DNA from: Balanoglossus misakiensis
Lineage: Eukaryota > Animalia > Hemichordata
Assembly: GCA_040954595.2 (NCBI GenBank)
Contig: CM082587.2
Coordinates: 1,703,000 to 1,766,999, forward strand
Reading direction: 5' to 3'
Length of the DNA: 64,000 nucleotides
Shown here: one piece after another, positions 2,888-54,600 of the stretch
Layout of the letters: every line of letters begins with the position of its first letter
How positions within the stretch are numbered: position 1 is the first letter of the stretch
Made by a program: the position numbers and the translations under genes
The notes under the pieces: model-generated
Databases searched by the model: none
What the model saw: the letters and a program-made list of their open reading frames with translations, nothing else
What the model was told of the DNA's origin: nothing

Positions 2888-3640
2888 GATTGTCACTTCA
2901 CATTGAGATCTCAGTACTCTCCATGGTTTTCGTCCACCTACCGATTACCGATTGTCTACGGGAGCGACTTGGAAAGTGGAGACTTCAGTTATGTAAACAT
3001 TTCACCATTTTCATCAGCTCCTTTACGGAATTCCTCAAGGCCCTCTAAGTCAGGAAGTAAAATAAAACTTAATGCTGCTGTCGTTCTCTAGACAATATGA
3101 ATGATAATATTCGTGGATATTAGTCAATAATTTATATATTAAACATTATTTTGCCGCCACAAGATAACATTTTGTAAGGCAAATGTAATTTTACCTTCAA
3201 AACACTTTGCCCAAGATTGCAAGGTGGTTGTAAAAGTATATGAACATACAGGGTCTTATCAGCTGCACGAAATCAACACTGAGGGCAGTGTGTTGTAGTC
3301 ATGCGCACAGCGTCCCTTCTCCATGGAAATGACAACAATCAACATGGCGACTGTCCTGAAGACCTGACAGTGACAAAGTTCGTTCCTAGTTTGGTGAGTT
3401 TGTGGCTGTTGGCACCATCTACTATCATGATTGAGTGACACGTGAATGATTAAAAGAAACAGTCTTTCTGCAATGCGCAAAACATACGGTGACGATCATA
3501 GCCGTCAAATCAGAGAGCAGGTTTGGCAAAGAAAAGCACAGCAACAGGTCTTTGGCTCAGTATGTGGGTGGTTATTGTAAGTCCTCACTGTCCTCTTTAT
3601 CGATGAAATATTGTACATTACAGACCTTTACTAGATAAAC
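2888..3640. promoter_or_regulatory. Bidirectional promoter region with a degenerate RFX X-box and a forkhead site
   Basis: ATGs of two divergent genes lie about 750 bp apart. TTCTCCATGGAAAT at 3317-3330, GTAAACA at 2993-2999, likely 5'UTR splice donor GTGAGT at about 3394. Confidence 0.45.
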
Positions 3641-6600
3641 ATGGCAGAGGAGAATGGAGGAGGGTTGACAAATGGTGAGATGACTGATTCCGGTCTTTTT
3701 GACTGCATGGAATCTGAGGAGATTCCTCCGGATCTAAATCAGGAAAACATCCAGGGTCAGGATGGTGAAGCAACACCAGATGAGCAAAGTCAAGCGATTG
3801 CATCACCAGAACATAGGCAGGTACTTGACAATGAACCTGAAAACCAGGCGGTAGGGGTTATGCAAGGAGAAAGCACAGAAGGAAATGTGAAAGATGAAAC
3901 ACATGCAGAGGATGATGCTAAGGATGTTAGTACGCCAGGAGAGCCAAGCCTGGGTCAAAGGTCAGAGAATCCTGTGCCACAGGAGGAACAGCCAGACACA
4001 GAATCAAGTCAAGGTGAACAGGTATCTCAAGCAGTGGAAGGTGGTGAACCTGCAGAGAATGTTGCCATGGAAACAGCTGCTGTGGCACAACCACCACCAC
4101 TGGATGAAAGGATGCCAGCAGATGGCGAGGGGGAGCAGGAGACGGTAACCGTGGATACAGGGAATGCTGAGACGTCTCTAGCTGACACTTCAACTGATCA
4201 GAGACGTCAAACTGGGGAAGACGAGACTGTTTCAAGCGAGGTGGGGAAAGAGGATAAAAGTGAAGCAGGAACAGACAGAAAAGTGGACAGTGTCCCCCAG
4301 CTACAAGTGTCATCTGATGATACAAGAGAACAAGACAGCACTCCAGAAATGGAAAGCAGAAATCAAGAAGACAAAACGCACACTAATGTAACAGGAGATC
4401 AGGATCATGACACAAGGACTCAAACAGAGGCTGACTCCATCCGGCCATCACCGGAACGAGAACAGGAAGGTGGGAGGAAAAGTTCCCACAGTTCTAAGAG
4501 TGTAAAGTTCCTTGATGAAACTCCCTCACAAGGGGATGTAGGGGAGGATGAGGATGAGGACCGACAAGTTGCAATTTATGAGAAATATGCGGCCGAGGAG
4601 AGACAACAGGAGAGTGATGATGATACAGACAGATCAGAGGAGTCTCCAGAGAATGTAAGTTTGAAGCCATTTTGAACTTATAATATACTGTGTAAACAAT
4701 TATAAAGTTCGTTGTATGTGTAAAGCTCTCAATATGCAATATCTCATCTTCTATAAACAACCATGCAAAATCTTCATTCCTTGTATTGCATGAATCAATG
4801 TAAAATGACACAACTTAACATTTTTGCAGAAATCTGAAGGAAAGAGCTCTGATCTCTTCCAAACGGCAGTCAGTGAAGAGAAAATTGAAGAGGCCAAACA
4901 GAGGAGGACATCAGTCATTGACAAGGAGGCATTTGCTGTGGATTTATTTGGGAGCTCAGAGGTTGAAAAAGAAACCATGTCTGGTGTGATTGATAAAAAG
5001 GCTCGTGAACAGTAAGTATTAACCAGATATAGGTCTAAGCTATCATTTTATCATTGAAAGGCACAGCTCCAACCGGTACATACATCTTTTTAAGTAATTA
5101 GCAGAACCTTGCTAAGTCTGAGTTTTCTGTTAATGCTCTCTACATGTTTTATTATTTTCAGTTTTGAAAGAGGACGTCAACTGATGGAAGAAAGTGACTT
5201 TTATAAAGCCATCACTTCGCTAGACAAGGCACTCAACTTGAAACCAAAGAACATTGAATTCTTTATCCAGCGGGGAGAATGTTATCTCCAGATTTGTGAC
5301 TTCCAATCGGCCATCTTGAACTACAAAAAGGCCTGTGTACTGGACCCAGAGAATGAGGACTATTATAACAGACTTGCCTTCATTTACTTTTTCCAAGGCC
5401 AGACTCTCTTTGATCAGCACAAGTTTTCAGATGCGCTGGAGTCGTTTTCAAGGGCAGCAGAAATGAAACCAGAAATCGTAGGCTATCACACAAGGAGGTA
5501 AGTCAGAATTACTTCCTGTACTTGTACATGTACTTTCCTCAGCAGAAACACTGCGCCTTGCACCTGAGAAATACTTCCTACAATGATTATTTATTTTATC
5601 CCGCAGTGTGGCTTGCCTTGCTGCTTTGCAGAGACACGGTGAATGTCTGGCTCTGGTCAACAAACGACTGGAAGTAGAGCAAGAGAATTCTGATCTGTAC
5701 ATCATGAGAGCCAGGCTGCATGAACTCTTCAGAAATGTATGTAACAAGCAAGTCATTTGGTTATATTTGTCAGTGTCTTGCTAAGGCAACACTTGTGCTA
5801 CCCACTTAAATTCTGACTGCATTGATTCACCAAGTGGAACCCTGCAATTATCTCGGCTGGATTCAGTCTACAAGTGTCCTTCAGAACTAGGTGTAAAGCA
5901 CTTCACAGTGATAATGCTAAAATCTCTGCAATCATGTCCTCCCTCTCCAGACCACACTGTGCTTCTACGACCTGAAGGATGCTCTCCAACTCAATCCAGA
6001 CCAAGCGGAGGCCAAGATGATGATGAAGCAACTTGAAGACAAGGCCAATGATTACAAAGCACAAACCGTGCAGATGAACCTCGCTGGCAAGTACAAGGAA
6101 GCCTTACAGAAGATCTCCATGGCGATAGAAACCAATCCAACTATAGCTGAGTATCATGTCGTAAGGTGGGTGGGCTGATTTTCTGTTGCTATCGTAGCTG
6201 TTCTATTTTTTAAGTCTAGAGCAGCTGGAATTGTTGTTGTCATGGTAACCCCTGTCTGTCTGCAGATATTCAGTGTTCAGGGTTCATGCAGGATGTTCTG
6301 TGTAGTTCATTTGTGTCTTTGTTATTTTTTGCAAAAAGAGGGGCTCTCCACAGAAGACTACAGGACTTCAATTCAGCAATTGATGATTATCTGCTGGCAT
6401 TGGACAAAACAGATCACGACGAGGAACACCTCACTTATCAAGACTCCCAACGACAATTGCTCCTCACGTACAACGACTTTGCCGTCGAGTGTTTCACCAA
6501 GGGGTTCTTTGATGAAGCCATTATCCTTCTCAACAAAGCCATCAAAGGGGAGAAACGAGAGAAAGGCCTGTATGTGAATAGAGGAGGTATGTAGTCTGGA

Positions 6601-8270
6601 TAGCCACTCACCCCCTCCATATAATGGTATCAACCTTATGGAATAATTGTCCATTTTCACACATGAAAAATGAGAGTTGATGATATGCGTGGGTGTTAAT
6701 ATGGATTGGAAGTATATTTTCACTAATAATTTTGCAGGTAGATACAACCTGTAATATATTCGATAACAAGTAATTCGTTTACAGTAATTTTAATTCCAAA
6801 ATAAAAAAAGTACTGGTATGAGAGGACAGTGCATTTACTTGTCTAATGTCCATTTTTATGAACTATATTTTTTTTAACTTTGTCTTTGTATTAATACATT
6901 TGTTGGCTGTTCACATTCTCATATTTTCATTTCTTCATGAACCACACTGATAATTTCTCATGTCCACAGACTGTTTCTTCAAGCAAGATGAGTTACAGTT
7001 TGCACTGGCTGACTACCACCAAGCATTAGAACTGGATCAGCAAGACTGGTCCATCAGGGCTAGGATAGCCAACATCCATAATGAGTTCGGTCTGCTGGAT
7101 TACGATGATCGGAATTACCAAGAAGCTGAGGCCAGGTTCACCATCGCCATTAAACATAACCCGAGAGTTGCGCAGTATTACGTTTCGAGGTCGAAAGTAC
7201 GGTTCATGATGGAGGTATGTTGGAGTACAGCAATTAAGTAGGCTATCTTTGTACTGACGTGTGATTGATAGTGGACAGTAAGGTTTCCATGGAAATAAAA
7301 AAATGGGCTGTTTTGCTGAGCATATCCTTTCTTCACTTTGGTCGTAGATGACTGAAAAGAAAACATTTAAGAACATTACACTTTTCATTGTTTTTTCAGA
7401 ATCACGGAGGTGCACGACAAGACCTCTTGTTAGCATTACATTTAGATCCCAGCAACGATGAGCTCATGTCACTGTTGCCGCGTTTGTTTCCCGGCAAAGC
7501 AGTGGGCGATGTGATGCGAAGCAAAGCCGCCAGGGCTGCCAAACTTGCCATTGAGAACGCTGTGGTGATGGCATCGCCAGTGAAACTGCCAACTTTAGCT
7601 GAGTAAGTCGTGCTGAAATGTATAATCACCCAATGTTCATTCTTGCAAAACATCTTGGCTGTTAACAAAATAACTGAGTACATTCATAGGGTTGCAGGGT
7701 CCACCATTAATTCTTTTCGTGTTTCCTGCGTAGGAGTGAAAATGGAAGCGAGACAGTGGATAGAGCAGAGAGCGAGAAGAGTGAAGAGGAACCAATGCCA
7801 AAGCCCTTCTCTCTTCCCGGAACTGCTTACAGTTACAAGACGACCTACAAGCCAGGCTTTCCAGATCTCAAGGCATGTCTGGATGAGATGGAATTCCACA
7901 AACACATTCTGAAAGGAAAGAAGAAGGTAGGGTTTACATGCAGTGCTCTTTCATCCCATGTTTTCTGTTGCATGTCTTTTCGTAAAGGATTGCCCTATTC
8001 ACACTCTTCAAAGGTCTAATGACGAAACAATTTTATTTCTTTGTTTTTATGTACCGGTAGATAACTACAAAAGTCAAGAAGATGCTACACGATCGTAACA
8101 GTCTGAAAGTAGACGTACCGAAACTGGCACCACAGCCACCAGCAAGACCAGTAGCGATCAGGGGAGGTGCTCTGGGGTCAAAGGGCATGGTCTCTGTGGT
8201 GAACCCTAAAGAAAAGAGTCGGCAAGCCGCAGGGTGGAGGACCTACTCCCTTGGGATATCACCAACATAG
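3641..8270 (+). CDS. TTC16: Tetratricopeptide repeat protein 16-like, with a long acidic N-terminal exon
   Basis: Exons 3641-4654, 4830-5011, 5162-5497, 5607-5736, 5951-6165, 6339-6586, 6970-7214, 7400-7602, 7734-7926, 8061-8270, all GT-AG and in phase. TPR motifs RGECYLQICDFQSAILNYKKA, QRQLLLTYNDFAVEC and LYVNRGDCFF are typical of TTC16. Confidence 0.85.
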
Positions 8271-10601: not shown

Positions 10602-10635
10602 AGCTTTAGCGTGAAGTGTCATTTCTATAACAAAC

Positions 10636-13600
10636 ATGGCGGCGTGCAGGAGCTTGTTTCTGTGCTGTCTGGCGATTGCTTTCCTGGGTTTCTTTCATTC
10701 TGAGTTCGTAGACGCGCAGGTTCACGAACACAGCCACTCTCATGGTCACGGTCATTCACACTCCGATCACGGGCATAGTCATGATCACGGACATTCGCAC
10801 GGACACGGACATAGTCATGATCATCACGGCCACAGCCATGATTCTGCAGACCATGCACACTCTCATGGCGGAAGTCATAGCCACGATCATCCCCATGAGG
10901 AACCGGCGAAAAAACGCGTCAAGCCGAAGAGTGACACCACGACTATGTGGCTAGAAGCCATCGGGGCAACTCTGCTGATAAGTGCTGCACCTTTCTTCAT
11001 ACTCTTCTTCATCCCCGTCGATAGAAACAGCCCTCAGGCTGAACCTCTCTTGAAGGTGTTGCTGAGTTTTGCATCAGGTGGTCTCCTAGGAGACGCCTTC
11101 CTCCATCTCATCCCTCACGCCGTCAATCCACACTCCCACGGGGGTGAAGATCACGGCCACAGCCACGAAGAGAGCAGTCATGGGCACTCCCACGACCACT
11201 CGCACGACATGAGTGTTGGGCTGTGGGTCCTCAGTGGACTCGTCACCTTCTTGGTCGTGGAGAAGGTGGTTAGAATTATGAAAGGCGGGCACGGACATAG
11301 CCACTCTCACGGACACAGTCACAACCTCCCGTCTGGCGACAGCGATGGTAGCGCAGTGAAGCAGAAGGAGGCGGCGTCGGACACCGAACTAAGACACAGA
11401 AAGAAAACAGATGGTGACTCAGACAAAAATGAAACAGAGAAAACAGAAGTTATCCCAGCAACAGGTATTGACATTAACACATATTAATTGCAGTTTGTAA
11501 GAAATATATATTCAGAATATTGTTTGAACCTGCCAAAATTGTAAACTGTGAAGTTTTATTATCCATTATCCATTCAAATAAAAGTACATTTTGCAGTAAA
11601 ATTGCAACATATGGCGTCATTAGTTTGGTAGCAGCATGAATTTGTTGAGTTTCTTCCATTACGAGATAGTCTACTCTTTCCCTACAATTGTCATCGATCA
11701 TGTACATCAATAACGACTGATTTATATATGTATATATATATATATATGTGCGATTATATCGTTTGGAAATTTATGATCCACTGGGAAATGTCCAATTTTA
11801 TTGTCACATTTCTCAATAAAGTGACAGGGTACCAGTAGAATGTGCATGAATATGCTATTTTCTCCATTATGTCAGAATAAAAAGAATGATGAATATTTCT
11901 CTCTATCCGATACTGGCCTTCTTAAATCAACTGTACATTGAAGAATATCTACACTTCTGAGACATCATGCAAATTACCATAAATTTTCCTTGCATTACGA
12001 TTTGCTGTCTGGTAGGCTTCTCAAAAACCTCTTTTAGAGATAAAACTGATCAATATCAAATGCCATAAAGATAATGACAGTTTTGCTCTAGATACCAGGC
12101 AAGCACCTGGATGGTTCCCCAATTTCTCATTAGATTCACTGTATTGTAATATTCCTTCTGGGTTGAAACAATTTTGTATCATCTGCGAACACATACATGT
12201 ATTTCCAGACAGTTTCCACTTTGCAATTGCTGGCAGAGATGCCTGAGAGATCTCCAGCGCAGTGCATTAAAATGTTTGTGTCCAGATCACTGAAAAATGT
12301 ATCGGATACGATACCCATCCCCAACACACATTGTAAATCCCTCCCTGCAGTTTAGTAGCTAATGATCTTACCAATCTTCTGGCAATATTCTGTTTGGAGA
12401 TTCATATTGCCAAATGTGTCTCCACAAAGCGATTAAAATCTTGGTGGGGATTCTGATTTGGTCTTCAATTGTTAATGACCGCACAAAACTGACCAGTGGC
12501 AAGGCGTATCATGTGTCCATAGATATAAGATCTTCGGGATGATTGTATTAAAGTGTAAAGACTTTTGTGTTAGTAATCAGAGCTTACATTGTTTAATGGG
12601 ATGAATAATTGAATCACGTTTCAAGATTTGTGTCAAATGCCTGTTTTTTTCTAAGTCTTTCAACATGCTTCAGGCAGTGGAAGAAGAAGTAAAATAATGT
12701 TGTTGCTTTGTGAGGAAGGGAATCTGATTCATGAGAGACAGATTAGAGTCAGATTATCTTGCATGCTTTACTTTTGATATTTCAAAATGACTGCTATACA
12801 CTGCCATTATCTCAATATGGAAATTTTAATTTCTTGCCTATTGCAGCACAAAAGCTTCTTTTGAAGGAAGGAATTAAAAACAAGATTATAGAACAACTTT
12901 CTTAGCTGAAAATCTCTGCTCAAGGATACACTGCACCTTCAAAATTAATGACTACTTTTCTGTCAGTTGATCGAGGATTAAATATTGAGCACAGTGCATT
13001 CTTTGTAAGCAGGTTTGGCTTATGAGGTTTCAGTTGGCCATGATTAGGGTGACGTTTCCCCTTTGTTTACAGACCATCTTGTTTTCGGGCACCAAACCCA
13101 ATCTTTTACATCCTCTAAAAATCTTTTAGGCAACATTTGCAGTTCTCACTACATTTCTCTCTTTACCACATATTTTAAATTTTGTTTTCTTTTGTTTTAC
13201 TCCACCCATACAGAAGATATCAAAGTTGCCGGATATTTGAATTTAGCTGCCGACTTCACGCACAACGTCACCGATGGACTGGCCATTGGTGCCTCCTTCT
13301 TGGTGAGTCGTAATCTGGGAATCATCACAACTGTGACCATACTCCTCCATGAGGTGCCTCATGAGATTGGTGATTTTGCAATCCTGGTGCAGTCTGGATG
13401 CTCTAAGAGAAAGGTGAGTGTGATGGTGGGAGACTTTGGGGTGTGTTCATATTGTTGAGATGAGTTTGATGTGCTGTGTTGTCTTTTACAAGCATCCACA
13501 TTTGTGCGACAGCTTCATACATAACACCTTCTAGGAATAGCTCATGTGAATTTCCTGTTCTCTGTTTCTCAAGTGTGTTTTGACCAGAATGGGATGGTTG

Positions 13601-14045
13601 GCACAGCAACATGAAGGAAGGCCTGAAAACTTGTCCGATAAAAGAGAATTCTGCTCAGTATTCTTGACCAGTTTAACATGAGTCTGAGTTCTGTATTACT
13701 ATATAAAAACACATCTATTCTACAGGACCAAGTGTCTGTATATTAGTGTAACATTAAAGTGAGTATCACATTTTCATTTGTTTGTATCTGTAGGCAATGA
13801 TGCTGCAACTGGTGACCGCCACTGGTGCTCTTACAGGCTGTATCATTGGTCTGTTGGCCGAGGGAACTGGTGATGCTGCAACCCTTTGGATTCTTCCATT
13901 TACGGCGGGGGGTTTCATTTACATTGCCACAGTCGCCGTCATTCCAGAAATACTGCAAGACTCCAGGCCATGGCAGTCATTCAAGGAAATACTAGCGATG
14001 TTAATCGGTGTGGGTCTGATGGTGCTTATAGCTAAGTTTGAGTAA
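10636..14045 (+). CDS. SLC39A7: Zinc transporter ZIP7 (LIV-1 subfamily, Catsup/KE4)
   Basis: Exons 10636-11464, 13214-13413, 13794-14045. Signal peptide, (HxH)n His-rich tracts, [20 protein letters not shown], and the [17 protein letters not shown] (HEXPHEXGD) motif. Confidence 0.95.
11723..11747. repeat. (TA)n microsatellite
   Basis: tatatatgtatatatatatatatat in SLC39A7 intron 1. Confidence 0.8.
12140..12210 (-). mobile_element. Decayed LINE reverse-transcriptase fragment
   Basis: Minus-strand translation [10 protein letters not shown] matches the CR1/L2-type RT catalytic motif; the surrounding frame is degraded. Confidence 0.4.
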
Positions 14046-20031: not shown

Positions 20032-20822
20032 ATGCGTTCCCTCCTCGTCATCGTTCTTTTGGCCTGCATGTTGTCAGTGGCATTCGGTAAGTACTGGTAG
20101 TTTACGTCATCTCAATGCAACTTTACTCAACCTTCCTCGGCCACACGTGCCGCGTTACTTTTGCAAATACCATTTTGACCATTGATGTACTTGTACAATA
20201 ATGCTTAAAAACAGTTATCATTCGTTTCTAACGTTTCTTATTTTCGTTTCACAGCCTCAACAGCCGCGCCTACTACCGCTGCCGCCGCCGGAACAACAGG
20301 TAAGACCGACTTGTTTGTCTTGGGTTGCCATGGGCAACATTTCTGAAGACAGTTCCACTCGTCACGTATAATTAAATCGGATTTATGAAAATTACCCTGG
20401 CGACCCCAACCCTGACCTTTAGTTGTAGCACAGAGTTTCGATTGCCTATACTTTATTGACATTGCTAATGGAGATAGTAATTCACCCCTGTCAATCATTC
20501 TTACATTTCCCTATTCTTTTCCATCTCTGCAGCCGCCGCCGGTACTGGAGGCACAGCCGCAGCAACTGCTGCCGCCACCACAGGTGAGATTTAGTAAGGT
20601 CTCTTGGAGCAGCCAAAATAAATGCCCACCGTATATACCGAGTGTTTCAACAATTATCCACGGAGTTGCGGAATATTGAATTGTTTTATTGTCGTATCTA
20701 TATCTGTTTAACGTTTATTCCCGTTTTTCCCACCAACAGACGAAGCCGACAGTGGTTTCCCAGTTGTGACCGCCAACGTGTTCCTCCTGGTGTCTGCTCT
20801 CTTCATGGCCCTTTTCCACTAA
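20032..20822 (+). CDS. 77-aa secreted Ala/Thr-rich mucin-like peptide, predicted GPI-anchored
   Basis: Four coding exons 20032-20086, 20255-20299, 20533-20583, 20740-20822 joined by phase-1 introns (234 nt in total). Protein: MRSLLVIVLLACMLSVAFASTAAPTTAAAAGTTAAAGTGGTAAATAAATTDEADSGFPVVTANVFLLVSALFMALFH*. Likely 5'UTR exon ending at 18996 with CCAAT boxes at about 18782 and 18841; 3'UTR intron about 20836-21036. Confidence 0.85.
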
Positions 20823-22112
20823 AACGTGACATAAGGTAAATTTGTCATTTTTGTATTGTTTTGCTGTTTTTATCTCGGTCATTAAACCGGTCATCTGGCC
20901 AAGCGTTTAAATACACGTTTCCAACATCCGAAGTCTTTGGGTTTTAGTCCAAAAATAAGTTCAACTTCCCTGCATGTGATGTTAATGCTTTTACCCGTAA
21001 GAGTTGAGTTTTAAGTATGTTTTCCTTTAATTTCAGGTGTCTGAAATCGTGCTGATGTTACCAGATTGCAGTTTTTTATGCCATGTATTTTTGAAAGTCT
21101 CCATGGAAGTTTTTAATGACGGTGCTCATAGATGAAGAACGGATGGATATGCCACGTGACATGACGAAAAATCAAACCGGACGTGACGCCATCTGTTTGG
21201 TGACTCTGCATCCGAAATGCTTTCAGGTTGACAGATAAAAAGACATTTCATTCAAGTTATTCCAGTTTGACAATCGCATCTCATTACACGATTTCCGTTA
21301 TCAGAACTCGTTCGACATGGTATAAATCCCAATACTGCGATTAGTTTCATTTGGCGAAGGTGCAATTTTTAAGTGGGATGTTGCAACCACCCCGCACTTT
21401 AAAAACTTGCTTTTTTTCGCAACGGTTTTTAATATGTTGTAAATTTTAAATTTAAAAACAGACGATTCGTCTTTCCGTTGTGTAATAAATATAATACTTT
21501 TTAATGTACATACGGTATGTCTGTCATTAATAACATTTGCTGATGGTACCTGTCTATAGTACCAGAATGAACGGCCCCTTGGGTCCATTGTGTTAAATTG
21601 GGGTTTTTGGTCAGAAAGATTTGCAATGGGGAAAGATAAGGGAACATCGATATATCGGAGGCGAGGGTAGAATTCATGGATATCACTCTCGGATGTAACC
21701 GCAATAACAATAAACACACCACGAGATGTTTGTTTGCAACTGAGACATTTGCATCTGACATGCCACCACGAGATCTCGTTTGTGACGGCATTTGGCATCC
21801 ATTTTGTGAAGGTTGGACCTCGTGGTCCGACTAGATGGCTCGATAACCTAGGCAGAGAAAGAAGGTTGGAAATATGAAGCTATTGCATCATAGCCGTGGG
21901 TAACTTCATGGTTTTGATCAAGGAGGTTACCGTCCGGACAAAATCAGATGGCATCATTGCGTACCTTGTGGAAAAAAGGTAAAATTGAGCCCCTCGGCAT
22001 CATTAATCTTTACATTGTATTTATGATTGCCAGTTTTTCGTCATAAAACAAACGCCAAAACTTATTAGAACAAATATATTTTTACCGTATCGTGACAACT
22101 ATCGAATACGAC

Positions 22113-22179
22113 ATCTCCGTGGCAACAGATTGATCGTTGTGTGATTCGAAGGCTTCGGGTTCGAATCCCACCGGAGACG
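22113..22179 (+). pseudogene. Degenerate tRNA-Arg-derived copy
   Basis: ATCTCCGTGGC...GGGTTCGAATCCCACCGGAGACG matches both ends of the neighbouring tRNA-Arg genes, but the D arm and anticodon arm are deleted or scrambled. Confidence 0.7.
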
Positions 22180-22520
22180 TGCAGGGAATGCGTTTTGACA
22201 TTAATTTTGTATGGTAACTGCATCGTACGTTTCGAGAACTGTCGCAAGTTACGCGCTCTGATCACGGTTGTTCACATACAGCTGAAAGCGAAAAGTTCAC
22301 TCCAAAACAAAAATATTGCAGGGTCGCTGGAGAGAACTATTGTTCTGAAAATCTATAAAAATCAGACCCTCCATCAGAGAGGGACTGCACTGTGATAAAA
22401 TGTACACCTCTCTATTCTGTTTGCTTTTGAAATTTATCTCACAACTGCATATCCGCCAATTTAAATTATACATTGTACATATTGATAATAATAGTGTTGT
22501 AACTGCACAGACAGGGTGAT

Positions 22521-22608
22521 GTCTTCGTAGCGCAACGGATAGCGCGTCGGACTTCTAGAGGTGATTGGTGATATTCGGAGGCTGTGGGTTCGAATCCCAC
22601 CGGAGACG
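22521..22608 (+). tRNA. tRNA-Arg(UCU) with 15-nt intron (22558-22572)
   Basis: GTCTTCGTAGCGCAACGGATAGCGCGTCGGACT-TCT-A[intron]ATTCGGAGGCTGTGGGTTCGAATCCCACCGGAGACG. A and B boxes present; oligo-T terminator follows. Confidence 0.92.
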
Positions 22609-23676
22609 ATCTTTTTTGGCAATTTTAGACTCTGGGAAGAACATCAAAAGGATAGCATCGAGCACAGGTCTTTTTGGGGCGAACTTTTTTGACCGACGGT
22701 GGCGCTGTTTTGTCAACGACCTTATAAATTATTATAAGCATGACAAGGCAAAGGCGTACGAATTCTACAATTAAATCAAGCAGATCAAAATACACTTGCA
22801 ACCCTGTGTTGGGCCTCCGATCGAAAGCTTCGGTAAGTCGGAAATTTTTGCTTATCATATATTGAATTATTAGCGCACTGGCTTATTGTACAATCAATAT
22901 TGAAATCATTTGACAATAGGGTGAGATTGCAGCTTCGCCAGTAATATAAAATGGAAGACGGGAGTAAAATATAAGAAATCCATATTATGTCAGCTTATGC
23001 ACAACATAGCACCTTTCATGTCTTTAATATTTCAGACATATCGAGAGATATAATCGATTGGGTGACATACTCATCATAATATTGTATACTGTCTGTATTT
23101 CATCTGGTAAGTGAACGTATTTTGGCCTAATTCCGTGGATTTTTTTACAATGAACATTTGAATCGTCACAATGAATACGTGTACACTCTGCCCCCAGGTT
23201 ACCTGGCAACGGTTAACAAGTCGAACTAGAACATGCTAGAAATATTTATTTATGTTGAATGTGTTAGGCCTAGCAATTGGCATATTTTTATTTGTGATTG
23301 TTGCATGGAACCAGACACCTGGCCATTGTGACCTATTTGAAAGGTCGCAGTGTGTGTACATTGTTATACGCCCATCAGGGTGACTATTGGCATGGCAGTT
23401 CACCCGCCGAAGTGGCCTTTCTGTCGGAAAGCTGGTACACATTGTATTATGATGAGTATGTGTTGCAACATGGGTACTTGTTGGTCGTCGTATAGGCGCT
23501 CGTGTAATTGTGGGACGCATAACAGTTATGGCACATATATGAAACACGAAAATGTACAATACGCCTCGCCATGGCATTGTGCCAGAAATTGCGGCACTCG
23601 ACATTAACACATACAACATCTACTGGTATGTTTTTAACAAATTGCAGGTATTAAGAAGGGAACAGCGAATTTTCCA

Positions 23677-25706
23677 ATGGGGACACCAGTTCGACTTTTC
23701 GATGTTTTTATCTGCAACAGTAGCAAAGATGAAAAAAAGGTCGACAAACTTATCGGAGAACTAGAAAGAAAATACGGCATATTGTGTTGCCATAGTCGAG
23801 ATCATTTTATTGGAGGCAAAGCAATCGCTGAAAATATTATAGACTGCATCAGTGGCTCACGCAAGATAGTTTTGGTGTTATCTCGTGCCTTTTCACGCAG
23901 TAAGTGGTGTGAATACGAACTTATTAATGCAATAGGAAAACGAGACTCCACAAATGACGTCATTCCACTCGTCATAGAAGACTGTGACATTCCTCCGCAA
24001 ATCAGTCATATTACCTACATCGACGCAGTGCGTGACACCGAATATCTGGAGAAACTTTCCAAAGTGATTAAATCTGGTAAATATGAAGGAGGCAATTTCT
24101 GCAACTTTCGATTTTTGTTGTACGAACTTTACGTTCACGTTGCCAACGTATTCGGCTAAAGGTAGTACGCGCTTCGGCGGAAGAAAATGATAGTCCGCCA
24201 AATATTAAAATATGTCAGTCATGATAGGATGTCAATTTACAATTATTGATAACACATTTTTACTTTTTATTGTTTTGTTGTGATTACATTTGTACTAGGT
24301 GATTTCGAGAGTTACCATGAAGATATATTACTTCAAAGGAGGACAAGGAAAACCAAACAGGTAACGCTGACTTCAAAAGCCCCGGGAAGTTACATGTTCA
24401 GAAAGTTTTCAAATGCATAACAATTGATGTCGAGTGTAGGCAGCGTCGCTACACATTCACTTCATATGTTCATATACAGAGTTCCCTTTTTGTTATTGAA
24501 ATGTTCGCGTTTGCGTCTATTTTTGTTTATTAATACTTTTTTCCTCAAAGTCATTTTACATTGTAATTGCAGCAATCATTTGGCGATAAAGGTTCAAAGA
24601 AACAAAATAGAATTGCGACAGACACGACTCGATGCGGTGTTTGCCATGATAAATGGAATTTTGCGAAGTCCTACTGCACAAAGTGTGAGAAGTTTTACTG
24701 CGAGCGATGTGGTAGATCACACGATAGTATCGCCAATCGTCATCACGAAGTTATCTCTATCAACGAATACAACAGACGCGTACAACATAGGCCTACATCC
24801 CGACATCCGTGTCATTTACATGATGACCAAGAATTAAATTCCTTTTGTCTGACTTGTGACAAGATAGTCTGTCCAGAGTGTGCGACAATGTATCATTCGG
24901 GTCATAAATTCTCATCTTTGTCGCTGGTTGTTAATGAGCGACAGACAAGGTTACAGAAGATGCTGAATGATATGACGTTAAAACGGGCGAATGTAGAGAC
25001 GATTTGTTCCAACCTGGAGATGTACGGCAAGGATATAACCGAAAAGAGGGTCGAGCTGAAGAAAACAATACACAAGTTTGTTGTCGACGTCAACAAAGAA
25101 TTAAAGAATCAACGGAGATTACTGTTGCAGGAGGTGAACGCACAATATCAAAGACTCGAAAAAGAACGTGATGAAAGACTGCGGGCGTTAAAAGAGAAAC
25201 ACGACAAATTGGATGGTGCAATAAACCACGCATGTGCAATGACCCAGGAAAGTGACGACATTAAATTTCTTGACATGGAGATCAATGGTCGGAGCAAGCT
25301 GCAAAGCGCTCATGGTGTAAGGGTGAATAGGAGGAATAAGTATGGTGGGCCGATGCCATCAACTAAAATAAACTTCAGGGAGAATTTCAAATTGATCACA
25401 TATTTTCGGAAGGACGATTCACTCGGTCGGTTTACTACAGTGCGGGAGCGAATTCCCTCCAAAAGGCCAAAAACCCGTGGAAGTATTTCATCTCCACCAA
25501 ACATTCCACGACCAGATTTGGGATCATTGAGTACATCCTTCAATAATTTAACACTGGTTACCCAGGAAACGACGATTCCAAAGTATCGCGAATCATCACC
25601 ACGTCGGCCCTTTCGATTGTTTAAATCTCCAATCGAAGATACAGAATCACAAACTGCAAATGTGGAAACTAAATCCCGTTTTCCTTCTGTGTATAAAAGA
25701 CATTGA
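23677..25706 (+). CDS. TIR - B-box - B-box - coiled-coil protein (TRIM-like, TIR in place of RING), 531 aa
   Basis: Exons 23677-24076, 24299-24360 and 24573-25706 splice in frame (1596 nt). TIR: FDVFICNS, GGKAIAENIIDCISGSRKIVLVLS, SKWCEYEL. B-box1: CGVC..C..CEKFYCERC..H..H. B-box2: CHLH..FCLTCDKIVCPEC..H..H. Heptad-rich coiled coil follows. Possible TATA at 22723 and 5'UTR donor at 22833. Confidence 0.85.
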
Positions 25707-26163: not shown

Positions 26164-26247
26164 CGTCTCCGGTGGGATTCGAACCCACAGCCTCCGAATG
26201 CCTGATCAACTAGAAGTCCGACGCGCTATCCGTTGCGCCACGAAGAC
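26164..26247 (-). tRNA. tRNA-Arg(UCU) with 11-nt intron
   Basis: Reverse complement reads GTCTTCGTGGCGCAACGGATAGCGCGTCGGACTTCTA[GTTGATCAGGC]ATTCGGAGGCTGTGGGTTCGAATCCCACCGGAGACG, followed by T-runs. Confidence 0.94.
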
Positions 26248-26364
26248 GTTGTACAGGATAAAATTAAAGGCTGAAATCGCCGATATCCCATAATTTCAAT
26301 TTCGCTTAGTTTCTCCACGATCACTTCACTATAACCATTTCGGGAGTCTGCCGCATTACCAATA

Positions 26365-28752
26365 ATTTGATTCGTTTCGAAAATAATTTTGATCCAGTTT
26401 CTTATAAAAATGACTTTGCAAATATTTCTTGGCAGGATGTTTACGACTCTAATGATCCGAATGTTGCCTATAATACCTTTTACAAATTGTTTCATGATAT
26501 GGCAACAAGACACGTACCAGTCAAACGGTGTTCAAACCAGCGTAAGCGCCTACGGAAACCATGGATCACAAAAGGACTTCTGGTCTCAATCAAAAACAAG
26601 CATAAGATGTTCTCCAAAACAAAACGCCATTCTGCAAGCTCACCTATTCATCAAGAGTACAAACTTTATCGCAACCTGTTAACAAAGCTGATGCGACGAG
26701 CAAAAAAGAAGTATTTTTGTGATAAATTGCAACTGTCTGTAGCCTCTGGGAAGGACCACAAAAAATGGCAAGTCATCAATGAAATCCTGAACAAAAATTC
26801 AAAGGTTAATGCTCCACAAAAAATAAAAGATGACAAAAACCCTGGGAATTTTGTTACTAAAAATATTGATATAGCTGACGCTTTTAATTCTTTTTTTGTC
26901 AACATTGGACAAAATCTAGCATCACAAATACATTGTAGCACTAATTTCAATGATTACCTTGGTATTCGTCATTTTAATTCTTTCTTTTTCCATCCTGTGC
27001 ATCCTGGTGATATACTCAGAGAAATTAATTTATTAGACCATTGTAAAGCTGCTGGTTTTGATGAAATATATCCAAAACTTGTAAAGGAAGCAGCTGATTA
27101 TATTACAGAACCATTTGCTCATATTGTTAATATTTCCTTGTCACAGGGTATTTTTCCAGAGAAACTGAAAATGGCAAGAGTAACACCAATTTTTAAAAAG
27201 GGCTGTGTTCATGAAATAGGAAACTACAGACCTATCTCTGTCTTGCCAATATTTAGTAAGCTGTATGAGTCTATTGTAAATAAGCAACTGTGTTCTTTTT
27301 TCGAAAAATTTGATATTCTCACTAACAGCCAATATGGATTTCGTAAGAAATATAGTACTAAGTTAGCTTTAGCAGATCTCACAACTGAAATATCAAAGCA
27401 CATTGATAACGGTCTTGTTACCTTTGGTATCTTTATTGATTTTAAAAAGGCATTTGATACGATTAACCACACAATTTTGTTAGCTAAGCTATGCCACTAT
27501 GGGATTAGGGGATCCACACTTAATTGGTTTAAGACTAATATAGAAGACCGACAGCAGTATGTCAAGGTCAATAATTGCACTTCAAAAGCGAAAAGGATCT
27601 CCTGTGGGATTCCACAGGGATCAATTCTAGGTCCACTTCTTTTTTTAGTATATATAAATGATATCTGCAGTTCCTCAGACTATTTTCAATTCAGGTTATT
27701 TGCTGACGATACCAATTTATTTTGTTCAGATAAGCAGGACAAAATTGATCTTGCCACTCTGAATGTTGAGCTAACTAAAGTACAGACCTGGTGTAAGTCA
27801 AATAAACTTACTATTAATATTGACAAAACAAACTATGTTATTTTCAAAACAGCCCAGGCGAAGTTTAAGCCTGAGGGAGATTTATATGTCTCTGATTTAC
27901 CATTACATAATGTTTATTCTGCTGTTTATCTTGGAGTTACTCTTGACTCATCATTATCCTGGAAGTCTCACATCAACATTATTTTTAAGAAGGTTAGCCA
28001 AAAAATCGGTATTATTTCATATGTACGCCATTATCTCCCTAAGTCTATAATTTTATTATTATACAATTGTCTTATCCTTCCCCATATAATGTATTGTATC
28101 GAAATATGGGGAAATGCGTATAAAACCTATTTAGATTGTATTTTCAAATTGTAAAAGAGACTTGTAAGACTTATAACATTTTCTAGCCCCAATACACATA
28201 GCGCACCACTTTTTCAGCAACTTGGAATTCTTAATGTTTACAAACTCTGTAAATTTCAAACTTGTGTTTTTGCGTATGATCTAAAGGCAGGGCATTACGC
28301 CCACTCACTAGATCGCTATGCTTCATTTGTATCACACAAATATTTTACAAGATTTGCCTCTACTGATAAGTTTACGCTTCCCAAAGTAAAACTTACTTCA
28401 TCTCAAAATAATTTATACTATTCTATTGCCAAGCATTGGAATGAAATTCCCACACAAATAAAATCAATTCATTCAAGGAATTTATTTAAAAGCTCTCTGA
28501 AAATGTATCTGTTGAGCATAGATTAATTTAACCTCTTTTATAAACCTGTTTACTTTGTCACCGCGTTGTTTGACTACCAACTATTGTTTTGTGATATGAA
28601 TTGGCAATTATATTAATTGTTTCAATGATTTGTATGTATTTAGGGCCAGGGACACGACTAGTTCCACTAGAACTACTTCCCTGGTCCGCACCAGTTATGT
28701 AAAATGCATCTTTCTGGTGAAATAAACTATCTATCTATCTATCTATCTATCT
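26365..28752 (+). mobile_element. 5'-truncated non-LTR retrotransposon (CR1/L2/Crack-type LINE), RT-only remnant with one premature stop
   Basis: RT motifs NYRPISVLP, QYGFR, DFKKAFD, GIPQGSILGPLLF, FADDT and YLGV. In-frame TAA at 28152-28154, after which the frame continues (HSAPLF..WNEIP) to a stop at 28526. 3' stem-loop at 28643-28687, AATAAA and (CTAT)n tail to about 28752. No endonuclease domain visible. Confidence 0.92.
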
Positions 28753-29301: not shown

Positions 29302-29385
29302 GTCTCCGTGGCGCAACGGATAGCGCGTCGGACTTCTAGTTGATCAGGCATTCGGAGGCTGTGGGTTCGAATCCCACCGGAGACG
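29302..29385 (+). tRNA. tRNA-Arg(UCU) with 11-nt intron
   Basis: GTCTCCGTGGCGCAACGGATAGCGCGTCGGACTTCTA[GTTGATCAGGC]ATTCGGAGGCTGTGGGTTCGAATCCCACCGGAGACG followed by a T-run terminator. Confidence 0.95.
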
Positions 29386-30899: not shown

Positions 30900-41147
<10,248 letters not shown>

Positions 41148-48648: not shown

Positions 48649-51600
48649 ATGTGCCCACCTTCAGGGCAAAGCGAAGCATATGGGTTTCCCATTGCAATCA
48701 CAGGGATAGGTAGGTGATTTGATATGTAAATAAATCGAGTTAACATATAATGGTATGGGTTATATTCGTATGCTATAAATAAGATACTTGTAAGCTAATA
48801 TTTGACCAAACAATTAAATGATTGAATTACCCACTTGTTATGCATGGCTATGTACAGAGAGTGAGCTTAAGGAAATAAATAATCTATCAAAAAATGGGCG
48901 ACTTTGATGTTTAAATGATTATGCAAAGTGTTAACATTCAAGATGATATTTCACAACTTCACCACCAGAATATTAATTTTTCCATGCATAGGTTGTCGAA
49001 TGCCTGGTGGGGTGAATACACAAGAAGGCTTCTGGGAAGTCATCAGTGAAGGCCGAGATACAGTGACAGAAATTCCCCAGGAAAGGTGGAACATCAACGA
49101 ATTCTACGACAGCGATCAGTCTAAATCAGGCAAGATGGTGACTAGAAGGGCAGGGTTCGTTGATGGTGTAGACCAGTTCGATCATGGCTTCTTCAAGATT
49201 TCACCAAGAGAGGCAGCATCCATGGACCCCCAGCAGAGACTGCTGCTTGAGGTGGTAGAAGAAGCCTTTGAAGACGCGGGAATCGATTCAGACAAACTGA
49301 AGACCGACTGCGGGGTGTTTGTAGGAATTGGTATGATGGACTATGGTATGGCCAACATCGATGCCTATAGCATGAACCCATACACTATAACCGGCAACGC
49401 CCACAGCGTAGCTGCCAATCGCATATCCTATGCTTTCAACCTGCAAGGCCCAAGCTATGCTGTTGATACAGCTTGTGCTGCATCAATGACAGCAATGCAT
49501 CTTGCCTGCACACATCTCTGGAACAAGGAATGCAAGGTTGCAGTTGTCAGTGGCTGCAACAGTCTACTCATTCCAGAGGTAACCATCGGGTTCAGTGCTC
49601 TCGGAGTGCTATCCCCAGAGGGTCGATGCTGTCCTTTCTCCGACGAGGCAAAGGGCTACGTCAGAAGTGAGGGCTGGGGCACTCTCATCTTGAAGCCACT
49701 TTCAAAGGCTGTAGCTGATGGTGATCACATCTACTCAGTCATCCGAGGAAGCGCGATCGCTGCTAATGGGTTCTGTGGAAGCCTGACCATGCCTCTGCAG
49801 GCTGCCCAAGAGTATGTCATGAATGAAGCCTATGACCGATTTGACCTGTCGATGTCCTCTGTTGACTATGTCGAAGCCCATGGCACTGGTACCCCTGTTG
49901 GCGATCCTATCGAAGCCCGTGCAATTGGTAATGCCTTTGCCCCATACAGAAAAGATCCTCTGAAAATCGGGTCTGGTAAGAGCAATTTTGCACACAATGA
50001 ATGCGCAGCTGGTATTACTGCAACAATCAAGGCATCTCTTATGCTGTCCAAGCGCACGCTCTGTCCCACAATCAACTACAAGAGACCGAATCCATCAATT
50101 GATCTGGAAGGGTTGAAGCTGGAAGTGCAAACATCAAAGGAGCCTTTCTTGCCGAACAAAAGCTATCGCATTGGCGTCAACAGCTTTGGTTTCGCTGGAG
50201 CAGTTGCCCACCTTGTCCTTGATGAACCACCGGTGACTGAAAACGAACCAAATCGTGTCTGCGGATGGCAGTTTGGCAGTGAACAGGAGGGTGAAGAAGT
50301 AATGCTTCCCTTGTCAGCAAAAACGAAAGAAGCGGTTGATGACTTGGCAAAGAAATGGCTGTCATTTAAAAACACCGATGATGCTCTGGGAGTGATCGGC
50401 TGGCAAGCCACGAGAAGAAAGCACCATGAGTTCAGAATGTGCATCACAGCCAAATCAGGGAAGGAGTTCCAGCACAACTTGGAGACCTATCTGGATGGGG
50501 CATCAGTCGATTCAATCGTGACAGGTTCGACATCTGGCAAACAGCCAAAAGTGTGCATTGTCTTCCCCGGCCAGGGACAGCAGTGGGCAGCCATGGGAAA
50601 GAAGCTGTATGCTACTGAAGAAGTATTCCGCGAAGCTATCAACCAGTGTGATGCTGTGTTCAAGAAACTCAGTGGGTGGTCTCTCCTCCATGATGCCGGT
50701 CTGTTCAATGGCCTGAAAGAACCATCCACCACAGCAAACCTTCCTGTCAATTCTGAAAACCTGGTAGATGAAATGGAAGTGTCCCAGCCTATCATTCTGT
50801 TTTTCCAGATTGGACTGTTCCATTTACTGAAGCACTGGGGAATCGCCCCTGCTGCTGTAGTTGGACACAGTCTTGGTGAGGTTGCTGCTGCTTATGCATG
50901 TGGTGGGATGACCATGACTGAAGCAGTGACTGCTATCTATGTGAGGAGCACACAGCAAGCAACTTTGAAAGGTGCTGGAGGAATGGCTGCTCTACGCAAG
51001 TCCACCGAAGAAGCAGAAAAGTTATGTGCAGAACATAACAACCTGTTCATTGCAGCTGTCAATGCACCTGGATCAGTCACAATTGCTGGCGACACGAAAG
51101 TGATCGAAGATATTGCTGCAAACAACCCACAACAAGCAAAGCAACTTCGAGTTCAATGTGCCTTCCACACATCGTACATGGACCCAATTGAGAAGACCTT
51201 CCTGCAAGCTATGGATGGTGTTGTGAAAACAACCAAAAGACGTGACAGCATTCCATTCTATTCCACTATAGATGGCAAACAATACAACGGTACATTCGAT
51301 GGGTCCTACTGGTGGAAGAATGTCAGAAACACAGTTGCCTTCAGTGATGCTGTGACCACTATGCTCACTGACATTGAACCTGATATCATCATAGAATGCG
51401 GAGCTTCTGCAACCCTGATGTCATCCGTCAATAAAATCAACCAGGAGGCTGGATTGTCAAAGATCATGACTGTAGCACTCGGACAGCGAGGCAAGGATGA
51501 CCGCCATGCACTGCTGAGGTCAGTTGGTTCTTTGTATGCTGCAGGTGTTCCCATTGACTGGAACAACATGACGTGCAACACTCTCAAATGGGCTCCCATC

Positions 51601-54600
51601 CCAACATACGCATGGCAACATCACACTCACTGGACTGAACCCGAAGACAGGATGAAACGTCGTCTTGGATTGGAGGACAAGAGCTTCAAGGGGCAAAATG
51701 GCAACATGTCAATCGACATGTTTCCATTTTTAGCTGACCATGTTGTCGAGAATAAAGTGGTATTTCCTGGCGCTGGCTACATAGAGTACTGCGTGGAGAT
51801 GTTCTTTGGGGAAACAGAAACACCAGCACTGAAAAATATGCGGTTCCTCCGTGCTTTGATTTGGCCACAAGATGAACGAACTGGTGGACCATCCAGAGAA
51901 AATGTCCCAGTTCAAGTCTCAAAAGAAGGCGCGTCGCTTCAAATAACATCAGGAGAAACCCAACACTACACAGCAGAGATGGACACTCCAGTAACCACTG
52001 ACGAGATTTTCCAGTGCCTTCAACTCCCCAAGATAAAGCAGAGATGTGAAACTTTGATGTCAGGTGTCGAACTGTATCAAAAGCTTGCATCCATTGGTTT
52101 GAATTACGGCCCCACCTTCCAGGTGATTCAGCAAATGATGCTAGGAGATGGAGAGGCAGTTGCAGTGATGGTGAACCCTTCTGACACCAAACAGAGAGTG
52201 CAGACAACACTGCTGGATGGATGCTTTCAACTGGTGATTGCATCACTGGGTAAATTCACAACAGCTTACCTGCCTGTAAAACTGGGTATGATGCAGATGA
52301 CTGTTCCAAAAGTGCCGTTTGGAGAGCAGCTGATCGCATATGCAAAAGTGACAGATTGTGACAGCACGTCAATCACTGGTGATGCATATCTATGCAGCAG
52401 CAATGGACAGGTTCTGGTGAAAGTTGCTGGATTGGTGGCCCAGAGTTTACAAGACAGCAGTTCTGCAGTTGACTTAGAGTCCTGCCTGTACTCAACAGAA
52501 TTACAGCCCGTGAAGTCATGCCTCCCTACTACAGACGATGTGTCGTGTTTATTTGAAGAGGACAGCCTGCGAAAGCTTTTCCCAGAAGACATGGACATAG
52601 TCACAAGAACAGAAGCAGTAATGCCACAAATAAAGACCATCTGCAAGTCTTACATCAAACATGCCCTTGATACTGTTGAAGATGATGATGTAGGGGGAAG
52701 AAATGTCCGATACATTAGAAGATTGAGAGCCATTGCTGGTGATGCCACTGTTGAAACATTGGCCAGAGAAGACATTCCTGTAAAGATGGAAGAAGTAGCT
52801 GCCATTGTTCCAGAAATGTCCCAAGAATTGAAAATGGTCAAGACGCTTGGTGACGCCTTGCCAGACACACTCAAAGATCCTGACATCGGCGTGTCACTAC
52901 TGTTTGCCCCAGACAGTCTTGCGCTGTACTTTGCTGATGCACCGACGATTCGCCTGTTCTATGAAGCTGGCGCTGAGGCTGTAGCAAGAGCTGTAAGAAA
53001 GTCAATGGAAAAGAAGAAAGTGGTGAGAATTCTTGAAGTTGGTGGAAGAATGGGCGGCCTCTCAAAGTACATCCTCAGAAATTTGAAAGAAGAAGTGGCA
53101 AACAAACAAGTCGAGTATGTCTTCACAGACCTGAGTGCATCATTCTTCTCACACGCCCAACAGTGCCTCGAAGAGTTTCCACTGGTCAAATACAAGCAGC
53201 TCGACATCGAGAAAGACATCGAACCTCAGGGATTCATTCCTGGAAGTGTTGACATCGTGGTGTGTCTTGATACCCTCCACTCTGCAGTTGATGTCAACAA
53301 CGGCATGTACCACATGCGCAACCTTCTTTGCGAAGACGGCTGGCTGTTCATGTATGAGGCAACCAATTCCAACTACATGACTGAGTTAGTCTTTGGTTCT
53401 CTTCAACTCTGCTGGGTCTATGAAGACTTCAGACAGGAATCATGCTGGCTGCCACGTAAAGGTTGGGAGGACCTTTTCAGAGAGAATGGTTACAGCGATA
53501 TAGTCAGTGTATCCTCTCCAAATGAACTTCTCCACAGCATAATGGTCGGTCGCAAAACAGGAGACCTCCCAGACCCGAAGGAGCAAAGCAATCTCACAGA
53601 AGATCAATTGTTCTTGCTTGGCTGTAATGATGAAATGGTCCAGAAGGTGATAAGTGAATCTTTGGAGAAGCCTTGCTCTACAGTCATGACCCCTACAATA
53701 GATGACATCAAGTCTTTCACCACCAACAAACCATCGAATGTTATCTACTGGTGTGGAACGTGGGATGCAAAACTCCATTTCCTCCTCAACTTGTTGAAAG
53801 AAATGGATACACATGAAGATAATATCAGATCTGTTTACATCATCACACAAGGGGCCTACAAACAGCAAGGAAATATTTGGTCTCATGCTGCTTTTGGTCT
53901 CGCAGGATCCGCCTGTAACCACATCGCCTCAGGACGTCTGTACTATGTCGACCTAGATTCTCAAGTGTCCATGCAACAAAACGTACAGATGCTGTGCAAC
54001 ATAATGCGCAATGCAAACCAACCAGAGAGAGCTCTTGTGATCGAAGGAAATGAAATTCTCTGTCCGAGAATCACCAATGCTGCCAAACCCGAAGTTTCTA
54101 CTCAGAATGTCAAGCATTGGCGCCTTGAACAAAACATTCGCCACGATGGAAAGGGTGCATCACTGGACGACTTGGGATTCTGCGGGTTATCTGATTTGAC
54201 TCTCAAACCCGGTAAAGTGATCGTCAGGGTCCATGCTGCAGCGCTGAACTTCAAGGACGTCATGATGGCCCATGGAATGTTGGAAGGATTAGAAGTTGAT
54301 GAGACACGTTACCGTTTTGGCCTGGAGTGCTCCGGAGTGGTTGAAGCCGTCGGTGAAGGTGTCACTCATGTGAAAGCTGGAGACGAAGTCATCGCATTTA
54401 CAAAGACCAGTTTCGCTTCCCATGTCGTCAGTGATGGTCGTTTCGTGATGCCTAAACCCAAACACATCAACATGGTCGATAGTGCTGGCATCACAGTCGC
54501 TTTCACCACAGCCTATCACAGTTTGGTCGAGAGGGCAAACCTGAGAAAGGGAGAAACAGTGTTGATCCACTCTGCCTGTGGTGGTGTTGGTTTAGCTGCC

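Follow-up and report, generated by a model that had tools for sequence, protein, structure and literature searches.

The question raised by this locus of the hemichordate Balanoglossus misakiensis is whether a TIR domain and a B-box/coiled-coil frame of the TRIM kind, which lie close to each other on the same strand, are parts of a single gene and, if so, what the resulting protein would do. The initial annotation had joined the two frames through a short exon and had seen in the product an innate immune effector that cleaves NAD+ or signals upon assembly. The window referred to below is the entire stretch analysed (64 kb); it consists of animal DNA in which the spliceosomal introns are short, and the locus occupies 3.5 kb between two tRNA genes.

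Gene structure

The predicted gene is made up of the following elements:

23036..23106 (+): candidate 5′ untranslated exon, its acceptor within the top 2–3% and its donor within the top 0.3% of sites
23648..24076 (+): TIR exon, with a 29 nt leader and the ATG at 23677, ending in a phase-1 donor
24077..24298 (+): intron 1, 222 nt, phase 1, GT-AG, GC 34%
24299..24360 (+): linker exon, 62 nt, phase 1 to phase 0, coding for basic residues
24361..24572 (+): intron 2, 212 nt, phase 0, GT-AG
24573..25706 (+): last coding exon, with B-box1, B-box2, coiled coil, tail and stop, matched by Pfam and by TRIM28

Splicing of the three coding exons (400 nt for 23677-24076, 62 nt for 24299-24360 and 1134 nt for 24573-25706) is predicted to yield 1596 nt encoding 531 amino acids with 0 internal stops, as the initial annotation had proposed; if the 62-nt exon is left out, the frame runs into a stop at residue 139. 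All four splice sites are GT-AG and the two introns are similar in size to the five inferred in neighbouring genes (114–224 nt). Among 7775 GT sites, ranked with an untrained donor table drawn from general knowledge, the donor of the TIR exon (ctg/gtaaat) falls within the top 2.5% and that of the linker exon (cag/gtaacg) within the top 1.3%. The acceptors were scored by two models: a generic, short-tract model, likewise drawn from general knowledge, places those of the gene within the top 6–9%, whereas a model built after the outcome of the first, and trained on 10 acceptors inferred in neighbouring genes outside the locus, places them within the top 2.4% and, for intron 2, within the top 0.8% of AG sites. 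The acceptor of intron 1 has a 40-nt pyrimidine tract (top 0.03% of YAG sites). According to the trained model, no other exon in the 496-nt gap, whatever its phase, scores as high as 24299-24360 (7.5, vs 3.0 for the next), and this score is matched by 29 of 1000 dinucleotide shuffles and by 14 of 510 real control stretches, true exons being present in some of these; with the generic model the corresponding figures are 41/500 and 60/510.

A further indication comes from the relatives of the TIR domain. When short close relatives are paired with long ones, the sequences of 4 of the 12 pairs diverge at a Gly located just after helix E, which is the mark expected from the read-through of a phase-1 intron, and the TIR donor of the present gene falls within one residue of this point. 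A stricter shared-intron pattern is found in 5/29 short and in 1/74 long proteins (p 0.006), whereas a looser one (15/54 vs 12/92) is not relied upon. The 379-aa open frame of the last exon has its earliest Met within B-box2, and the 64-kb window contains nothing else that could serve the TIR as a partner exon. Since the B-box frame lacks a Met ahead of B-box2, the TIR has no other partner and the relatives carry signs of an intron in the same place, the locus is best described as one gene, and a transcript joining the TIR and B-box exons by the predicted splice very probably exists.

The exons located upstream of the TIR exon seem to be untranslated, no in-frame Met being offered by the upstream exon chains having a workable intron. 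The candidate untranslated exon, near which an additional donor is found at 22833, is the weakest part of the gene model as we infer it, and the acceptor at 23647, ahead of the leader of the TIR exon, is weak. A longer coding N-terminus was rejected, as 11 of 12 exon chains lack an in-frame Met and the twelfth needs a 22-nt intron. A direct splice from donor 24064 to 24573 would remain in frame (507 aa), but its donor is weaker (top 8%) and the end of helix E is lost; its product is possible as a minor form. Two further models were rejected: that the B-box gene sits within an intron of a TIR-DUF4481 gene, the DUF4481 part being absent from the window, and that an NHL or SPRY exon follows downstream, none being recognized by Pfam in the frames up to 31100. 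Atlas rows suggested a bacterial origin, which was set aside in view of the spliceosomal-type introns and of the best alignments, which are with animal sequences.

The B-boxes, the coiled coil and the tail

From the N- to the C-terminus the predicted protein consists of the TIR, a basic linker of ~40 residues, B-box1, B-box2, a 116-residue helix and a disordered tail. The segments encoded by the last exon are:

24633..24746 (+): B-box1, residues 175-212, with eight zinc ligands; pattern match and Pfam ANCHR-like_BBOX (2.9e-6)
24810..24905 (+): B-box2, residues 234-265, with a complete ligand pattern; best zf-B_box stretch in Pfam
24918..25265 (+): coiled-coil helix, residues 270-385, one continuous helix of 116 residues in the predicted model
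25266..25703 (+): C-terminal region, 146 residues, no Pfam match

Pfam recognizes zf-B_box in two stretches (E 4e-12) and PML_CC below its cut-off (0.0015), and an alignment with TRIM28 spans B-box1, B-box2 and the coiled coil over 195 residues (E 3.7e-12). The single-sequence model of the B-box part is reliable for the helix only, the pLDDT of which is about 80–98 over most of its length. The pLDDT of the C-terminal region is <50 in the 57 residues modelled and its last 89 residues are rich in Ser, Pro, Thr and Arg.

RING, SPRY and NHL domains have no Pfam match at cut-off in the exons or in 31 reading frames lying around the gene and further downstream; the RING expected of a TRIM/RBCC protein is likewise missing from the upstream frames and its position is taken by the TIR. 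The placing of the TIR where TRIMs carry their RING, and the lack of PRY-SPRY and NHL, are thus as first annotated. The remaining features of the family, namely two zinc-liganded B-boxes and a coiled coil directly after B-box2, are present in the canonical order, so that the protein answers to the definition of a TRIM-like (incomplete TRIM) protein, for which the RING is dispensable, as given in the available part of PMC2533329; in that definition, however, the motif is N-terminal, whereas here it is preceded by the TIR.

The TIR domain

The TIR comprises residues 8-132 (Pfam TIR_2, E 1.7e-18) and its predicted structure has the five-strand TIR fold of the TLR-adaptor type, with a pLDDT of 89.6. 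Its best solved sequence matches are TLR2, TLR6 and TLR1, TLR10 also being among the best, and oyster TIR-STING is found among the solved matches as well (E 3e-9); SARM1 is not among the 42 phmmer matches, nor among the 60 listed of 98 profile matches. By fold, the closest structures are the MAL filament, Hydra TRR-2 and MyD88 (TM 0.82–0.87), SARM1 occupying rank 44 (TM 0.73), although these ranks partly repeat the sequence result, the model having been made from an alignment of TIRs of this kind. LRR, membrane helix and death domain have no counterpart, by Pfam, in the gene or in the surrounding frames.

The BB-loop proline is needed for MyD88 recruitment. The present domain has Gly46 where 92 of 167 relatives carry Pro, and its RD motif is one place off; because of these two changes ordinary recruitment of MyD88 may be lost. 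Box 2 as defined in PMC7075850 (RDxxPG) is accordingly absent, with Gly replacing Pro and a one-residue shift.

The highest-scoring single TIR domains belong to TIR-DUF4481 proteins of hemichordates (Ptychodera, Glandiceps, Saccoglossus) and are 43–46% identical. In quick trees, one of 168 rows and one of 33 hand-picked rows, the branch leading to the TIR is long (1.08–1.17 changes per column) and lies outside the supported TLR group. With respect to the clade of TIR-DUF4481 proteins it falls outside in the 168-row tree, and the 33-row tree places it within an unstarred group; by the AU test neither a grouping with these proteins (p 0.28) nor one with the TLRs (p 0.17) is rejected. Common descent with the TIR-DUF4481 domains is neither shown nor rejected by these trees.

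These TIR-DUF4481 (TMEM268-like) membrane proteins account for 46 matches among the relatives collected, in hemichordates, bivalves and a frog; they are mostly annotated as 'uncharacterized' and nearly all have Glu at the catalytic position.

The NADase question

Two residues bear on the possible enzymatic activity of the TIR:

23716..23718 (+): Asn14, after beta-A, at the position of SARM1 Tyr568 (aligned through the DVFI motif)
23917..23919 (+): Glu81 of WCEYE (residues 77-81), at the position of the catalytic Glu of TIR NADases

The WCxxE motif is retained as annotated, but the reading of its Glu as a sign of NADase activity is not supported. Of 167 related TIR domains, 163 have a counterpart of Glu81, as do TLR1/2/6/10; being so common, the residue does not set this TIR apart. 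Furthermore, TLR2, IL-1R9 and IL-1R10 retain the Glu and showed no activity, according to the accessible part of a survey of animal TIRs (10.64898/2026.04.20.719644); the helix-C Glu is necessary but insufficient. In the same source, 61 animal TIRs that carry the Glu were expressed in E. coli, of which 12 were active and 49 gave no product; the active ones, most of which lie outside the TLR clade, made mostly cADPR without depleting NAD+, and the authors point out that assays of isolated domains can miss activities that depend on assembly. Self-association is required by TIR NADases, as stated in the accessible part of 10.1101/2021.10.02.462850.

Trp77, Cys78, Phe11 and Gly47 are retained along with Glu81. 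The position of Asn14, on the other hand, is occupied by Tyr, His or Phe in 150 of the 167 related domains and by Asn in 1/167, and the following residue is Ser in place of the Arg present in both SARM1 and RUN1. We know of no active TIR lacking an aromatic residue or His after beta-A. Mutation of Tyr568 (Y568A) lowers the activity of SARM1 in the accessible part of PMC8266388, whose primer list supplied the sequence context for the alignment, and the RUN1 residue at the same position is Phe33, whose mutation F33A causes loss of activity (10.1101/2021.10.02.462850). Judging from the sequence, it is doubtful that the TIR has any enzyme activity, an estimate that starts from the base rate of 12/61, is lowered by Asn14 and is raised by the position outside the TLRs and by the limits of the assays; a depletion of NAD+ like that caused by SARM1 would be very improbable.

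Search for the same architecture

The initial annotation did not recognize the architecture, and our searches give the same picture. Among the best 150 of 4228 TIR relatives (from 1.84 billion representatives) the best B-box score is E 0.52 and no B-box2 pattern occurs, a scope from which fusions involving less closely related TIRs would escape. Pfam scans of 116 of these 150 gave LRR, Ig, ankyrin-death, TPR, BIR, STING and DUF4481 as partners, and no B-box. Conversely, the B-box part has 30 Atlas neighbours, and the family sets listed for them contain no TIR. Word-based homologue searches with the TIR (for longer proteins) and with the B-box frame returned nothing at E 1e-3, a profile search returned 16 proteins with no B-box among the matches listed, and none of the 113 pattern matches of a metagenome scan was confirmed.

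In the literature listings and papers covered, no description of a TIR and B-box fusion was found. The B-box does not appear in the table of TIR partners of 13 genomes in PMC2575513 (supplement 4), and the term is absent from the portions considered of PMC7075850 (text and three supplements), PMC8662601 (text and one supplement) and the texts of PMC5094078 and PMC6321704; in the accessible parts of PMC9334734, PMC8195603, PMC2533329, 10.1101/2023.10.30.564762 and 10.64898/2026.09.21.753143 B-boxes and TIRs are mentioned only apart. The gene is intact, apparently undescribed and seen once, and a table of 71,000 TIR proteins may list another.

Neighbouring genes

The locus is not embedded in an immune gene cluster within the 64-kb window, its neighbours being ordinary:

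3635-7000 (+): TPR gene
10615-14000 (+): His-rich ZIP zinc transporter
31104-31490 (−): PDZ gene
33200-39830 (−): ABC-transporter-like gene, recognized by eye, two of its frames being without Pfam match

Near-identical tRNA genes or tRNA-derived repeats with a TCT anticodon are located at 22521-22608 (+), 26164-26247 (−) and 29302-29385 (+), with a partial copy at about 22110-22181, and two of the copies flank the TIR/B-box gene. A short insert follows the anticodon and we take them to be intron-bearing tRNA-Arg. Directly downstream of the gene, 26310-28526 (+) holds a 614-aa frame with a reverse-transcriptase domain (E 6e-33), followed one stop further by a 123-aa frame and by a short TCTA run near 28730; the whole is probably the 3′ portion of a young LINE that inserted next to a tRNA gene.

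A type I polyketide synthase is encoded at 48919-56328 (+), with 2320 codons in one frame (KS-AT-DH-MT-ER-KR) and the ACP in the next frame, and a flavin monooxygenase gene (58858-60960, −) lies tail to tail with it. Enzymes of these two kinds cooperate in the pigment cells of echinoderms, and the two genes may constitute a small animal biosynthetic pair. Finally, a small gene with strong splice sites at 20032-20823 (+) seems to code for a signal peptide followed by a spacer rich in Ala, Thr and Gly and by a hydrophobic end, in the manner of a GPI-anchored mucin-type peptide.

Proposed working of the protein

The gene likely arose by shuffling of a TIR exon onto a RING-less exon encoding B-box1, B-box2 and coiled coil. 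Our preferred reading of its product, to which we assign a probability of about 0.5, is that of a TRIM-like scaffold that clusters a non-enzymatic TIR acting as a signalling element or as a decoy. By analogy with the TRIMs, the coiled coil would form an antiparallel dimer with the two TIRs at its opposite ends, so that contacts between TIRs would require the joining of dimers through the B-boxes, as does RING activation in TRIM5 and TRIM25. As judged from the class of the TIR, the clustered domains may then bind TIR proteins of the TLR pathway, seeding or damping their assemblies. Because the protein lacks a recognition domain, the putative trigger is sought in a partner bound to the coiled coil or the tail, or in co-assembly with another TRIM.

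The geometry assumed has precedents: the accessible part of PMC6660772 describes antiparallel dimers of KAP1 (TRIM28) that assemble further through B-box1, and that of PMC5076470 places the RINGs of TRIM25 at opposite ends. Besides this geometry, the TLR/MAL/MyD88-like class of the TIR, Asn14 and the evidence for a single gene argue for the scaffold. Against it stand the altered adaptor surfaces (Gly46 and the shifted RD), the long branch of a TIR to which the trees assign no place, the fact that higher-order assembly was not needed for KAP1 function (PMC6660772) and the observation that most active animal TIRs are of the non-TLR kind to which this one seems to belong (10.64898/2026.04.20.719644). 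Of the immune effector first proposed, clustering through the B-boxes survives as a plausible switch, with signalling likelier than enzymatic activity, whereas the NADase as argued from the Glu is not supported.

Alternative explanations

An enzyme gated by assembly, in which clustering of the B-boxes turns on a Glu81-dependent cleavage of NAD+, with cADPR a likelier outcome than a SARM1-like draining of NAD+, appears unlikely. The retention of Glu81, Trp77, Cys78, Phe11 and Gly47, the mostly non-TLR origin of the active animal TIRs, the possible under-reporting by isolated domains, the dependence of TIR NADases on self-association and the match with oyster TIR-STING speak for such an enzyme; yet 49 of the 61 domains gave no product, TLR2 is inactive despite its Glu, NAD+ was undepleted in most active cases, and both the aromatic residue and the Arg next to it are replaced here. 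Quite unlikely would be a version of the clustered scaffold that makes cADPR, and the same holds for a TRIM scaffold that has exchanged the role of a ubiquitin ligase for that of a nucleotide-signal enzyme: the B-box lattice, by which antiviral TRIMs switch on their RINGs, would here activate a TIR that produces cADPR or depletes NAD+. It is also rather improbable that we are dealing with a young or decaying fusion, spliced as modelled, whose TIR is drifting and which, if functional, would be a RING-less TRIM regulator: the long TIR branch, the rare Asn14, the altered BB loop, the single copy in the window and the lack of an orthologue in the homologue searches would fit this premise, but both frames are intact, the core TIR residues have been retained, as have all zinc ligands, the TIR model folds with good confidence and sparse sampling of the lineage accounts equally well for the absent orthologues.

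Two separate genes or a mixed locus, i.e., a TIR-only product of 160 aa that reads through to the stop codon 24157-24159 alongside a B-box gene with its own first exon (ATG at 24084, donor at 24162), are decidedly unlikely. This donor, too, keeps the frame into the 62-nt exon, the TIR frame, if left unspliced, stays open as far as 24159 and is followed by ATTAAA at 24204, TIR-only and RING-less B-box/coiled-coil proteins are both frequent in invertebrates, and the splice scores of the fused gene, reached by 3–12% of the controls, are good rather than decisive. Nevertheless, the donor at 24162 (top 7%) ranks below that at 24077 (top 2.5%), the ATG at 24084, only 7 nt past the TIR donor, would demand a promoter inside the TIR exon, the read-through tail has no matches and the intron signs of the relatives coincide with position 24077.

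Comparison with known systems

The nearest solved member of the TRIM/RBCC family, TRIM28/KAP1, has B-box1, B-box2 and coiled coil in the same fixed order and in one large exon, and the nearest Atlas matches of the B-box part are clusters of RING-less B-box/coiled-coil proteins of 290–350 aa, mostly molluscan where the source is known. Unlike the TRIMs, the present protein has a TIR in the position of the RING and lacks PHD-bromo, SPRY, NHL and filamin domains; no RING-type E3 activity is expected of it. With the TIR-DUF4481 proteins of hemichordates, molluscs and amphibians it shares the N-terminal TIR and signs of the same exon end, but neither DUF4481 nor a membrane part exists in the window, the profile that matches the 46 relatives giving a six-frame best E of 0.3.

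TLR1/2/6/10, MAL/TIRAP, MyD88 and Hydra TRR-2 have Box 1 and the WCxYE helix in common with this TIR, which differs by the BB-loop Gly and the shifted RD and is not joined to LRRs, a membrane helix or a death domain. SARM1, the plant TNLs, oyster TIR-STING and TEP1 TeTIR likewise carry a TIR with Glu at the catalytic position on an oligomerising scaffold; the scaffold considered here, however, is devoid of ARM/SAM, NB-ARC, NACHT and STING, the ARM-SAM-SAM-TIR architecture of SARM1 being absent by Pfam, and Asn occupies the Tyr568 position. The gene is a variant of the TRIM-like scaffolds and of invertebrate TIR shuffling, and is neither a strict TRIM nor a relative of SARM1.

Significance of the fusion

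The two modules fit each other mechanically, as clustering activates the RING of the TRIMs and TIRs signal or cut NAD+ only when clustered. Should the TIR be an enzyme, TRIM assembly would be tied to signalling by cADPR, a molecule for which a role in animal immunity was suggested in 2026 on the basis of bacterial expression only, and a scaffold rewired in this manner would be an animal TRIM counterpart of the plant TIR resistosomes. If the TIR is a scaffold component or a decoy, the gene would be another case of the known TIR shuffling of marine invertebrates (28 partner domains in amphioxus) and would concern chiefly comparative immunologists. The TIR/B-box gene represents a natural test of the coupling between TRIM clustering and the TIR.
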